This document shows, one piece after another, positions 4,853 to 62,890 of a DNA stretch of 64,000 bases (positions are counted from its first letter, which is position 1; each line of letters begins with the position of its first letter). The stretch lies in assembly GCA_951406725.2 (NCBI GenBank), contig OX597821.1, positions 64,046,001 to 64,110,000 on the forward strand, written 5' to 3'. The position numbers were made by a program, and so were the translations under genes. Source of the DNA: Octopus vulgaris. Lineage: Eukaryota. Below the pieces are notes generated by a model. It saw only the letters and a program-made list of their open reading frames with translations, did no database searches and was not told the DNA's origin.

Positions 4853-6161
4853 TGCAGCTACTGCATCATTTTGATGACATTTTGAGAGCCTTGGGAGAGG
4901 GTTCCAACACTGATGTCATCTACCTTGATTTCAGCAAGGCCTTTGACAGGATTGATCATAAGATCCTTCTGAGAAAGCTGTCCAATATTGGTGTCACTGG
5001 AAAGCTGCTGCAGTGGATCAAGTGCTTCCTGTCTAACAGAACCCAACATGCTGTAGTCGAAGGAGTCAAATCCAGCCCAGCCAAAGTCAGCAGTGGTGTC
5101 CCACAAGGCACTGTGTTGGGCCCACTTCTCTTCATCATCTACATAAATGATATTACTGACACCATCAAACACAGTAACATCAGAACCTTCGCTGATGATT
5201 CCAAACTCCAGAAGGTCATCAATGGCGTGGATGACCGAATAAGCCCTCAGTCAGACCTACTGGCTGTTTTCCAATGGGCGGAAAAGAATAACATTCTGCT
5301 AAACGAAGACAAATTCGAACTGATCCACTTTGGAAGGGAGGACGCTCTGAAACTCCCATACTCCCTTCTTTCTGGAGAAATTCTCATGGCGTCCAACAAC
5401 ATCAGAGACTTGGGAGTAACAGTGGACAACAACATAAGCTGGGCTACACATATAAGCAGCAAAGTTGACATGGCCCGCAGAATGTGTTCCTGGATTCTCA
5501 GAACCTTCCAGTCGAGAGATTCCCACACTATTATCCTTCTCTTCTCCACTTTTGCCCGACCCCACCTTGAATACTGCTGTCCACTGTGGTCTCCGTACAC
5601 AAAACAAAATATTATGAGAATTGAAGCTCCCCAAAGGTCAATCACAAAAAAGATAGATGGCATGTCAGACCTTGACTACTGGGGTTGACTAGAGAAGCTG
5701 AAACTGTATTCACTCCAACGACGCCATGAACGCTACATTATCTGTATGATGTGGAAAATATTCCATCAGCACTGTCCGAATGATGTTGGCATCACCTTCA
5801 AAATACATCCAAGGCTTGGACCACGTGCCATCCGTCCACAACAAAAATCTAAATCGCATCACATAACGACAATACGGCACAACTATTTCACCTCAATTGG
5901 ACCCGCTCTCTTCTACATTACACCAGGACACATCAAAAAAGAAACTGACCACACAAAATTCAAGAAGTCTTTGAACAAATTCCTTCAAACAGTCCCGGAC
6001 AAACCACCCACACCCGGATATGTCTCCGCAAACAATAACTCTCAGCTCGAATGGGCCTTGGTGCCCAAATCCTGAATTGGAAGAGTTCGCCAGGTGGTGC
6101 TATTAAGTTAGACATGGCCTGGGCCAATACTGGCCCAAACCTTTCTAAGTTATTCTAAGTT
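4853..6161 (+). mobile_element. 5'-truncated CR1-group LINE, family B (RT to C-terminus plus 3' UTR)
   Basis: [33 protein letters not shown] and [13 protein letters not shown] in one frame, with one in-frame TGA at 5686-5688 and the ORF ending at 6075. 3' end ttctaagttattctaag; (TA)n on both sides. Confidence 0.93.
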
Positions 6162-22317: not shown

Positions 22318-24953
22318 ACTCTTTTACTCTTTTACTTGTTTCAGCCATCCGGCTGAGGCCATGCTGGGGCACCGCCCTTGTTGCTACCCTCTCTAAGTCC
22401 AGTTTGCCGTGGCTGGCCACTGATCTAAGATAGAGTTTGTAGCTGCTGCCCTTAGGTTACCTTCGTACCTTGCAGTGGGTTCATCTGGGATCCCGGAAAG
22501 CAGCTTGTCTAGATGTTTTTTGAAAATGTCCACATCCGCATCATGTAGATCTCTTAGTTTTCTTGGCAGTTTGTTGAACAGCTGAGGGCCCCTGAACCCC
22601 AGGCTATTACAGTATCTGCTCCTTACCCTGGATGTGGAAGACGGGACCTTTGGCACCACACAGTACGGGGATTGGAACAGCTCTCAATTCCAAAATTTGG
22701 TGCTAGTCCCTCCAGGATTTTCCATATGTACATCACTGCATATCTCTCTCGTCTTCGTTCCAAGGAGTACACATTGAGTTCCCTAAGCCTCTCCCAATAG
22801 CTCTTTTCTTTCATGGTGGAAATCCTCTTGGTGAAATGTCTTTCGATTGTCTCAAGCTCTGTGGTTAGTTTGACACTATGCGGTGACCACAGTTGGGAGC
22901 AGTAGTCCAGGCGGCTTAGGATAAATGTCCTCCATAGTGTCAACATGGTCTCGCAGTCTCTTGTCCGGAATGTCCTCAGGATCCAGCCAGTGAGTCGTCT
23001 GCACATTGTCGCCACCTTCGCGATGTGTGAAGAAAAAGATGCATCGTCACTCATGTCTATCCCCAGGTCCCGTATTGATTTCGATACTGGGATTTCGATC
23101 CCTCCTGGACCAGTATAGTTGTGTTGTAATGTATATGTGTTTACAGCTTGATATTGTAAGGCTTGAAATTTACCAGCATTAAATTGCATGTTGTTGTCTT
23201 CAGCCCATTTGTATATGGCATCCAGATCTTGTTGTAAAAGGTCAGCATCAGCTGGGTTTTTGATTGCCTGTGCTACCTTTGTGTCATCAGCATAGCTAGT
23301 GAGGGATGTTGTTTGTGCTACCAAGGGCATGTCAGAGAGCGCCACCAAAAACAGCAAGGGTCCCAAGACTGTGCCCTGTGGCACCCCGCTTGCTATTGGT
23401 GTCTTTCCCGAGAGGGCTCCATTGGCTGCAACCATCTGGCTTCTGTCCTTCAGGAAGTCATGTATCCACTCACCTACTTTTCCTGTTATGCCAAGTCTGA
23501 GTAATTTGTGACATATCACTCCGTGGTCGACTTTGTCAAAGGCCTTCGCAAAGTCGAGATATACCACATCCACCTGTGAGCGATCCAGTAGTTGTTTCAG
23601 TACCCAGTCGTAGTGTTGTAACAGCTGCGTAAGGCAGCTTCTTCCTGGGCGAAAGCCATGCTGTGTGTCAGTGAGACGGTTAGTTTCTTCCAGGAACGTG
23701 ATCAGTTTTTTCTGATGATTCGTTCCATGACCTTACTTATGTGTGACGTCAGGGAGACTGGCCTGTAGTTTTTGGCCTCTGCTCTACTCCCTCCTTTGTG
23801 GATAGGGCATATGGTGCCTTCTTTTAGCGCCCTGGGCAGTTTACCGTTAGCCAAGGAACCACTGAAGAGCTTCTTCAGTGGTCCCGCTAGGGCATGCCTG
23901 CATGTTTTTAGGAGGACTGCTGGGAATCCATCTGGTCCAGCAGCTGAGTTTATTCTCATTTCTTCTATGGCAGATATTACATCCCTCTCTGTTATGTCTA
24001 TGTGGTCGATGGTTGTTGTTTGGTTTTGGAGTGTTGTGGCATCAAAGAAAACTTCTGGGTTTGTGATTTGCATGTGCCCCAGAGGGGATGTGAACACACG
24101 TTTATACTGTTCCTTTAGTATTTCACTTATCCCTTGGGGGTCCTCAGTTAGAGAGCCCTTTTTATCAAAGAGTGGGCCAATCTTGCAGTGTACCGAGGTG
24201 GTTTCTTTCGCAAATTTAAAGAAAGCTTTAGGGTTTGTTTTAATATTCTCTATGGCCCTGGCTTCTCTCTCTGCCCTCTCCTTCTCATAGGAAAGTTTGA
24301 GTGCAGTTTCCGTTTCAAAAAGTTTCAGGTGGAGTCCCTCATTGTTTCTCTGCCGTGCATTCAGTTGCTTCGAGAGCTTAGCTCTTCGCCTCATAAGTAT
24401 TTTCCTGTCTCTGGGAATAACGTTCCTATGCCCGCTGGCTTTTTTCTCCGGGACAAACTTATGGCATATGTTCTGTATTGTTGTCATGAAATGTTGGAAA
24501 TGTGTGTTGGTGTCTTGTGTGGTGATGAAGTTACTCCAGTCATGTTTTCGGATCTCTTCGTTGATCTTCTTCCAGTTTGCCTTATGGAAGTTTAGACTGG
24601 ATAGGCCTGTGGTATTTTCTAATGGCTGCGTTTCAACTAACTCTCTCATACCATATATCATTACCTCTACTAAGTTGTGATCTGAGAGAATTGTTGGTTT
24701 TACCATTATGTTGTGAATGAGCATCGGGTTGCTTGTGAAACAGAGGTCCAAGACATTCTCACCTCTTGTTGGCCGAAGCACTGCTTGTTCCATGAAAAAC
24801 TTGCGTGTGAGAGCCAACAAGGACTCTGTCTGTCTCTGTTCAAGTGATGTCATTCCAGGGAGGAGATGGCCATCTGGCCATTTGACTTTCGGGAGGTTAA
24901 AATCTCCCAGCAGTAGAATGGTGTTACCCTGGTCCAGTTTGTCCAGGACTTCT
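22318..24953 (-). mobile_element. 5'-truncated CR1-group LINE family A: ORF2 from the APE endonuclease C-terminus through RT to the 3' tail
   Basis: [27 protein letters not shown] (APE); [33 protein letters not shown] (RT). Frameshifts near 23705 and 22655; tail (gtaaaaga)2; TA tracts on both sides. Confidence 0.95.
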
Positions 24954-59711: not shown

Positions 59712-59983
59712 GTCACCCTTTTCAAGCCTAGCCAGGCTCATTGGGTCCCCCACCCCCAGCTGGACGGAACGCCAGTCCATCGCAGCGTTACTCAAGAAAC
59801 AGGAAGAGAGAGTGAGAGAAAGTTGTGGCGAAAGAGCACAACAGGGGTCGCCAGCAGCCCCTGCCGGAGCCTCGTTGAGCTTCTAGGTGCTTTCGCTCAA
59901 TAAACACACACAACGCCCGGGCTGGGAATCGAAACCGCGATCCTCCGACCGCGAGTCCGCTGCCCTAACCATTGCGCCTCCAC
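59712..59983 (-). mobile_element. tRNA-derived SINE family S4
   Basis: Minus strand: gtggaggcgcaatggttagggcagcggactcgcggtc..ggtttcgattcccag. Confidence 0.82.
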
Positions 59984-60485
<502 letters not shown>

Positions 60486-60626
60486 ATATAGAGGGCATTA
60501 TACATACATGCCAGAGGGCATTATACATACATGCCACACGCTAAGAGGGACAATTAGTCATTTCTACCAAAAATATTACTAATCCCACCGAATGCAATTT
60601 TTCAAAGTAAGACATTTAAAAAATAT

Positions 60627-60674
60627 AGACCTGTATCACAGTGATTTCATACTTACGTATTCATCAGCAGGCCT
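60627..60674 (-). ncRNA. Predicted type-I hammerhead ribozyme (H5, unit 1)
   Basis: AGGCCUG-CUGAUGA-AUAC(GUAA)GUAU-GAA-AUCAC(U)GUGAU-A^-CAGGUCU; core intact. Confidence 0.88.
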
Positions 60675-61102
60675 GAATGTATCATAAATAAACGACCCTG
60701 CCCCGCTTAAGTCGATCAGCTAACTGATCAACATCAACGAAGCACATGGGTGAGTTTACATATATTACATCCTGTAAATGGCATACTTTTACGAATTGCA
60801 TTTCGGGAAAGGAAAAGTTTTTTCGGAATAAAAATTTAGCAATTAAGGACAACTACTTAATAAGGAAAACTTAACAAGAAATTGTCAGGTAGATAGCGTG
60901 AAAACCTCGTAAGAGAATAAATTTCGAAAATAATTATTTCTTATTGAACATATTAATTTATATATAGAGGGCATTATACATACATGCCAGAGGGCATTAT
61001 ACATACATGCCACAAGCTAAGAGGGACAATTAGTCATTTCTACCAAAAATATTACTAATCCCACAGAATGCAATTTTTCAAAGTAAGACATTTAAAAAAT
61101 AT

Positions 61103-61150
61103 AGACCTGTATCACAGTGATTTCATACTTACGTATTCATCAGCAGGCCT
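61103..61150 (-). ncRNA. Predicted type-I hammerhead ribozyme (H5, unit 2)
   Basis: Identical motif 476 bp further on. Confidence 0.88.
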
Positions 61151-61578
61151 GAATGTATCATAAATAAACGACCCTGCCCCGCTTAAGTCGATCAGCTAAC
61201 TGATCAACATCAACGAAGCACATGGGTGAGTTTACATATATTACATCCTGTAAATGGCATACTTTTACGAATTGCATTTCGGGAAAGGAAAAGTTTTTTC
61301 GGAATAAAAATTTAGCAATTAAGGACAACTACTTAATAAGGAAAACTTAACAAGAAATTGTCAGGTAGATAGCGTGAAAACCTCGTAAGAGAATAAATTT
61401 CGAAAATAATTATTTCTTATTGAACATATTAATTTATATATAGAGGGCATTATACATACATGCCAGAGGGCATTATACATACATGCCACACGCTAAGAGG
61501 GACAATTAGTCATTTCTACCAAAAATATTACTAATCCCACCGAATGCAATTTTTCAAAGTAAAACATTTAAAAAATAT

Positions 61579-61626
61579 AGACCTGTATCACAGTGATTTC
61601 ATACTTACGTATTCATCAGCAGGCCT
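61579..61626 (-). ncRNA. Predicted type-I hammerhead ribozyme (H5, unit 3)
   Basis: Identical motif 952 bp further on. Confidence 0.88.
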
Positions 61627-61830
61627 GAATGTATCATAAATAAACGACCCTGCCCCGCTTAAGTCGATCAGCTAACTGATCAACATCAACGAAGCCCATG
61701 GGTGAGTTTACATATATTACATCCTGTAAATGGCATACTTTTACGAATTGCATTTCGGGAGGAAAAGTTTTTTCGGAATAAAAATTTAGCAATTAAGGAC
61801 AAATACTTAATAAGGAAAACTTAACAAGAA

Positions 61831-62890
<1,060 letters not shown>

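Follow-up and report, generated by a model that had tools for sequence, protein, structure and literature searches.

The 476-bp tandem array of the window (the window being the whole 64,000-nucleotide stretch of Octopus vulgaris DNA analysed here) is most likely an insertion of a non-autonomous non-LTR retrozyme that is mobilised by a Penelope-like element (PLE), probably one of the Hydra clade. The kind is already described in the available text of PMC7229834 and 10.64898/2026.07.22.740005, and the element itself is no surprise; its interest is that it makes the mechanism of PLEs and retrozymes testable. The family offers a clean test case, with a short template, hundreds of young insertions and two mapped putative start sites that are used strictly one per insertion end; the genome also holds candidate helper proteins. 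The passages of the literature available to us treat as open questions both the integration of PLEs and the role of retrozyme circles as transposition intermediates. We found no publication on octopod elements of this kind, which the supplement of PMC7229834 may list, and the main text of the octopus repeat annotation (PMC13282606) contains no mention of ribozymes.

Structure of the array

As determined by TRF, the array is a head-to-tail tandem with a period of 476 and 2.9 copies (98% matches, 60473-61832); its longest stop-free frame has 56 codons and its GC content is 33%. It is flanked on the left by (TA)n/(TG)n and on the right by about 1 kb of (TA)n. These results agree with the preliminary description, made from the letters of the sequence, which had seen about 2.8 head-to-tail units of 476 bp with no ORF, embedded in TA tracts. 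Unit positions are numbered on the plus strand from window position 60954, with the predicted cut at 156/157. The features of the array are as follows.

60478..61832, minus strand (the RNA sense): the complete insertion, a single 1355-bp arm comprising 2.85 units, which runs from its outer end at site B to its inner end at unit position 405
60627..60674, minus strand: type I hammerhead copy 1, predicted cut 60634/60633
61103..61150, minus strand: type I hammerhead copy 2, predicted cut 61110/61109
61579..61626, minus strand: type I hammerhead copy 3, predicted cut 61586/61585
60634..61109, minus strand: cut-to-cut monomer 1, 476 nt, predicted to be highly self-paired as a circle
61110..61585, minus strand: cut-to-cut monomer 2, 476 nt
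60478..60490, minus strand: site B, the fixed outer end used by the window copy; internal copies at 60954-60966 and 61430-61442
60828..60838, minus strand: site A, the other fixed outer end of the family, internal in the window copy; also at 61304-61314 and about 61778-61788
60838..60965, minus strand: the roughly 120 nt separating sites B and A, termed the "tail" by comparison with that of PLEs in the available text of PMC8557442 and PMC11167929
60848..60886, minus strand: predicted hairpin immediately 5′ of site A, conserved through a compensatory change in the sister family
60490..60536, no strand assigned: 23-bp internal duplication adjoining site B, present in every unit, missing from some subfamilies
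60376..60477, no strand assigned: left (TA)n target tract
61833..62890, no strand assigned: right (TA)n target tract

No second (A) arm was seen at the window insertion. Site B of this copy shows TATATAT microhomology to the (TA)n target, and the hairpin at 60848..60886 may be an RT-binding element.

The units of the window differ from each other at independent sites, and one substitution private to this locus is present in both units that cover its position; the array is therefore not a plain assembly duplication, a concern that the preliminary description itself had raised. The long TA tracts on either side would suit an assembly artefact, yet an artefact of this sort, or a motif arisen by chance, is hardly credible in view of the independent differences, of the tandem form that recurs at dozens of loci, and of the loose type I hammerhead descriptor, which matched only 1 of 20,000 dinucleotide shuffles of the unit.

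Left of the array lies a GC-richer stretch (window 59720-59980) that we take, by eye, to resemble a piece of a tRNA-derived SINE. LINE-type RT fragments broken by (TA)n tracts were seen at window 4858-5688 and 22623-24700.

Hammerhead ribozyme

Each unit carries on the minus strand, in this order, stem I (AGGCCUG), the core CUGAUGA, stem II (AUAC-GUAA-GUAU), GAAA, a palindromic stem III, UA^ and CAGGUCU. The motif thus has the CUGANGA, GAAA and UH core elements, the three-stem junction and the open stem I of a type I hammerhead. It lies complete at the three places where the preliminary description had put it, the three cut sites given there are correct, and the loose descriptor picked out these places only in the 64-kb window. 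The Rfam hammerhead model, which had been proposed as a check, gave no match to the array at the gathering score or at E<=10; this miss is a limit of the library rather than a defining feature.

In the computed fold of the lone 48-nt motif, stems I and II had a probability above 0.9 except for the outer pair, stem III reached only about 0.03 and the core paired into an inactive shape. The stem III homoduplex was computed at -10.1 kcal/mol. Stem III is thus predicted to be stable only as a dimer, which supports the double-hammerhead reading that had been put forward from the letters. A weak palindromic stem III acting in this manner is known from PMC4209133 (available passages). The double hammerheads of newt and axolotl satellites, as far as the accessible text of PMC4209133 and PMC7229834 describes them, resemble the array in their weak palindromic stem III and predicted dimer action; the palindrome of the array is longer, with 5 bp on each side of a 1-nt centre, and it has A10.1-U11.1 where G-C is usual. 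Free folding of a 121-nt region did not recover the hammerhead (z -0.84), and in three contexts the active fold lay 2-5 kcal/mol above the minimum. A stem I extended by ACAUU/AAUGU, as had been proposed, is not supported: the predicted folds lack it, and ACAUU varies among subfamilies; neither the folds nor the subfamily comparison gave a conserved stem I extension of the loop 1 - loop 2 contact type.

Comparison of copies bore out the expectation of stem covariation: 3 of the 7 stem I pairs are changed on both sides across subfamilies and still pair, and stem II variants retain pairing. Core and stem III were intact in 51 of 54 copies captured between two anchors, and the core in 228 of 232 captured copies, a number biased by how the loci were found. 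Shared minor alleles occurred at 0 of 12 core sites vs. 78 of 373 other sites. The excess conservation of the core that had been anticipated is thus seen as a difference in counts, which alone is not significant and is biased by the choice of loci. In sum, the hammerhead is real and probably functional.

Computed folds also pointed to structure in the whole monomer. The circular MFE of monomer 1 was -123 kcal/mol (z -6.5 vs. 60 shuffles), monomer 2 had z -8.1 in the sense and -3.7 in the antisense orientation (20 shuffles each), and the sister-family monomer z -3.3. Between the family of the unit (family 1) and its 480-bp sister family (family 2), 7-8 double changes keep monomer pairs where about 2 are expected by chance, a count made for one family pair on predicted structures. 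Together with the changes in stem I, these monomer-wide compensatory changes imply selection on the cut-to-cut unit.

Dispersed copies and related families

The look for other copies across the genome, suggested in the preliminary description, showed that the family is young, dispersed and present in hundreds of copies. Full-length matches to the unit are 93-100% identical and lie on many chromosomes (40 of 1909 candidates scored). Three exact sequence patterns gave 119, 704 and 537 matches, the last for a 27-mer, with zero in the controls. Scaling from 22 loci on contig C1 gives roughly 270 loci genome-wide as a lower bound. A full cut-to-cut monomer is contained in 43 of the 117 loci analysed, and 15 contain at least two. 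Parts of the stretch were also present in sequencing runs from five organisms, and none of the runs listed is recorded as RNA.

The family shares with non-LTR retrozymes (PMC7229834 and 10.64898/2026.07.22.740005, available text) its non-coding low-GC tandems from dimers to long multimers, one type I hammerhead per unit, the lack of an LTR, the self-paired monomer and the presence of PLEs in the same genome. In particular, we found the type I hammerhead repeated in two or more successive units, 33% GC, no LTR anatomy and dispersed copies, and such tandem, dispersed, hammerhead-bearing units support the earlier proposal of a retrozyme-type element with a 476-nt monomer. The unit of 476 nt is longer than the ~170-400 given in the available part of PMC7229834 and falls within the 51-972 of that of 10.64898/2026.07.22.740005.

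A sister family of 480 bp (352 matches, L121-L132) is identical to the unit at 366 of 451 aligned bases. Its A and B ends are homologous, its stem I is Watson-Crick throughout and its stem II is longer, with a U-U base. An unrelated tandem family of 353 bp (L058:2356-3564; C1, ~70.537 Mb) has its own type I hammerhead with a palindromic stem III; its copies are 98-100% alike, with 2443 first-look candidates, and in all 4 two-armed loci its two fixed ends, ~45 nt apart, are divided between the arms, one on each. Single hammerhead-like motifs were also seen in the flanks of L003, L060, L066 and L105, suggesting that the genome holds more families of this sort. For seven single hammerhead-like matches no matching unit was found nearby.

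Anatomy of the insertions

The 117 loci were the best matches and the first places listed by the three patterns (duplicates L002, L014 and L023 dropped, L039-L040 joined), a choice that over-represents long and hammerhead-bearing copies. Outer ends of arms fall at two fixed places about 120 nt apart, A (unit positions 351-361) and B (1-43, mostly 1-13), and inner ends are variable. In the first set, 126 of 137 classed arm starts adjoin TA-rich tracts. Two inverted arms with both outer ends classed were found at 77 of 117 loci, and one end was A and the other B in 77/77. One classed arm was present at 39 loci and none at a single locus; 15 of the 117 are B-only, like the window copy. The sister and 353-bp families follow a rule of the A+B type in the few loci seen. 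As many as 92 of 196 arms are longer than one unit, and inner junctions (n=53) overlap by a few bases in 28 cases, are blunt in 5 and contain inserts in 20.

This anatomy, with its partial tandem, inverted arm, one-sided tail and microsatellite target, is Penelope-like. The available passages describe PLE insertions as partly tandem, with one arm inverted and a tail confined to one end (PMC8557442), and place that tail between two internal sites at which RT starts (PMC11167929). Insertions of Hydra-clade PLEs, as far as PMC8557442 could be consulted, resemble the family in their partial tandems, inverted truncated second arm, one-end tail, (TA)n and hammerheads; in contrast, the family has no ORF, a tail of ~120 nt vs. 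30-40, and a canonical hammerhead with a 7-bp stem I. In the accessible text of PMC11167929, Poseidon PAc of the green anole likewise has two internal RT start sites that define the tail and an AT-rich target, both strands of which are cut and extended, with a predicted protein dimer. The start in vitro was, however, the same on both strands, whereas the two ends differ here at all 77 loci, and site B of the family, unlike Poseidon PAc, has homology to the target. For non-LTR retrozymes, the available text of PMC7229834 and 10.64898/2026.07.22.740005 describes neither two fixed outer ends nor inverted arms nor (TA)n targeting, and we found nothing relevant in the published literature on twin priming or a two-strand mechanism for PLEs.

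The preliminary description had called the array a satellite, a label that is misleading since the array is a single insertion of a dispersed PLE-type retroelement. That it is a common satellite which spread through recombination of DNA, and whose hammerhead was inherited but has no use, is very improbable and largely refuted by the A+B census: outer ends fall at two fixed places while inner ends vary, inversion is strictly A+B, and (TA)n is targeted. Arrays of up to ~31 units with signs of unequal exchange do fit a satellite, but the long arrays have the same A and B ends. The longest is the joined L039-L040 (C1:64.64-64.66 Mb), whose ~31 units make up an arm of 15 kb; its A and B ends are normal, and it shows very few differences. 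We considered and rejected the view that it arose in one RT event, in favour of later recombination in long arrays. Variants at L089 have a three-unit period, and the variants common to non-adjacent units at L089 and L039+L040 indicate that some multimerisation took place after insertion. At unit position 330 (window 61283), on a G-run/A-run border, the same G/A difference between units recurs within 6 loci, perhaps marking a hotspot of RT slippage. The differences that recurred within loci at unit positions 210 and 212 were discarded as alignment artefacts, which they were in 5 of 6 loci re-checked.

At L058 a family-1 A arm is followed by a family-3 arm, ~1.4 kb of DNA and a family-1 B arm joined to a family-3 arm of the other type, the crosswise join spanning L058:1507-5372; over 245 nt the two family-1 arms show no difference. 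In the one case seen, this order could result from two insertions that took place together and were joined crosswise, from a later inversion between palindromic insertions or from a mis-assembly.

The inverted arms have a further possible explanation, namely that site B is not a second priming site and that the A-primed cDNA folds back and copies itself, the endonuclease resolving the product at B. The identical haplotypes of the two arms are compatible with it, and so is the attribution of the tail to endonuclease resolution in the available part of PMC8557442. Inner ends lie no more than 25 nt apart in 16 of 77 loci vs. 8.4 expected (p=0.008), though the first set already gave 15 of 53 and the added loci only one more. 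On the other hand, once the tail is subtracted the A arm is no longer than the B arm in 43 of 77 loci, where the B arm thus cannot be a copy of it; 15 loci are B-only, and at L058 each of the two matching family-1 arms is joined to an arm of another family. We thus regard fold-back copying as improbable.

Template of reverse transcription

A cut linear monomer serving as template would halt the cDNA at unit position 156. Results showed that 144 of the 149 arms reaching the cut site continue past it, that only 1 of 196 arms ends at positions 153-158, and that the pile-up of cDNA ends looked for at the cut site is absent. The cut-site junction is exact in 220 of 222 captured copies. Since arms pass the cut site with an exact junction and run for more than one unit, the template must have been a circle or an uncleaved multimer.

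We lean towards the circle, judging from the haplotypes of the copies. Between the arms of one locus, 9 of 808 lineage-informative positions are mismatched vs. 36% between loci, and all 36 loci with at least 8 informative sites have no more than 2 mismatches vs. 16% of cross-locus pairs. Within each of at least five haplotype lineages, whose ages overlap, units and arms agree. A single active master locus in each cell could also produce arms of matching haplotype. Locus-private substitutions are found in one unit in 80 cases and in all units in only 12, and nearest loci are often 0-4 substitutions apart, which counts against a circle. Contigs of three sequencing runs, presumed to be RNA, make one turn of the unit; we did not use them as evidence because a circle, a tandem transcript and DNA would all yield such contigs.

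The alternative is that the same PLE-mobilised element is copied from an uncleaved multimeric transcript, with a hammerhead that is slow, protein-dependent or dispensable and with recombination homogenising the arrays. An anole PLE inserted unprocessed RNA in vitro, without need of the hammerhead and with hammerhead mutants unaffected (PMC11167929, available text), and of the predicted Xenopus retrozyme dimers only 1 of 9 was cleaved; both results count against a cleaved template. An uncleaved multimer also predicts arms that pass the cut site without pile-up, and it agrees with the predicted misfolding of the monomer core and with the visible expansion after insertion. It is, however, difficult to reconcile with the selection on the cut-to-cut unit implied by compensatory changes. 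The uniform haplotype lineages, moreover, would need repeated one-unit bottlenecks followed by re-multimerisation, and copied junctions or flanks should occur among the inner ends. No inner-end 24-mer recurred between loci among 200 ends, except pure TA, so that such copied junctions or flanks were not seen. On balance, we consider an uncleaved template rather unlikely.

Proposed mechanism

Under the favoured reading of a PLE-mobilised retrozyme, a tandem copy would be transcribed on the minus strand, and two hammerheads, paired via the palindromic stem III as their computed fold allows, would release a 476-nt monomer. By analogy with work on mussel and axolotl, this monomer would, somewhat more probably than otherwise, be closed by ligation into a self-paired circle whose single hammerhead adopts an inactive fold. 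The RT-endonuclease of a PLE would then cleave a (TA)n tract on both strands. Priming of cDNA would take place at internal site A from one of the resulting target ends and at site B from the other, in keeping with the two-end geometry of the copies, and the RT would run past the ligated cut site for more than one unit, as is seen in the arms. Joining of the free cDNA ends by microhomology would give an inverted two-armed insertion; alternatively, one arm would be joined directly to (TA)n, as in the window.

More specifically, and as a tentative proposal, one PLE protein dimer with one circular RNA may cut both (TA)n strands and prime two rolling-circle cDNAs at fixed but non-equivalent sites, one for each end of the target. 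If true, this two-site circle mechanism would account for the inversion of the arms, the tandem arrangement of the units and the role of the hammerhead as well as for the PLE tail, and L058 would represent two events from two retrozyme families joined crosswise, with the intervening DNA inverted.

Candidate helper elements

A PLE fragment beside one locus gave 9975 first-look candidates; a second PLE fragment used as query returned old fragments only. At L101 we found an open frame of 806 aa with RT and GIY-YIG-like motifs, DKT and CxCX5C, and without CCHH. Judged by these motifs, it fits the Hydra clade as defined in section 11 of PMC8557442, in its available form; an assignment of the PLEs to Neptune was dropped since the motifs fit Hydra. 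Pfam gave no match to the L101-type frame. Copies of the L101 family are 95-97% alike and end in (TA)n, and its two 3′ ends, ~80 nt apart, lie in opposite arms at 2 clean loci (L103, L105).

Among 30 PLE loci taken from the 9975 first-look candidates, none has nucleotide homology to the unit; the partner is therefore a candidate class and not a named family. A pLTR homologue of the partner was likewise not found among the 30 loci, and the 353-bp family has no nucleotide homology to the PLE loci examined.

Within the young Hydra-motif element at L101:2987-6454, a hammerhead-like core at 5851 in the 3′ region falls outside the descriptor. The tails of two PLE families (L101:6374-6454 and L109 near 6300) share, by eye, a 9-base motif that is missing from the retrozyme tail. 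At least a dozen PLE ORF matches cluster near the end of contig C30, at ~19.9-21.1 Mb.
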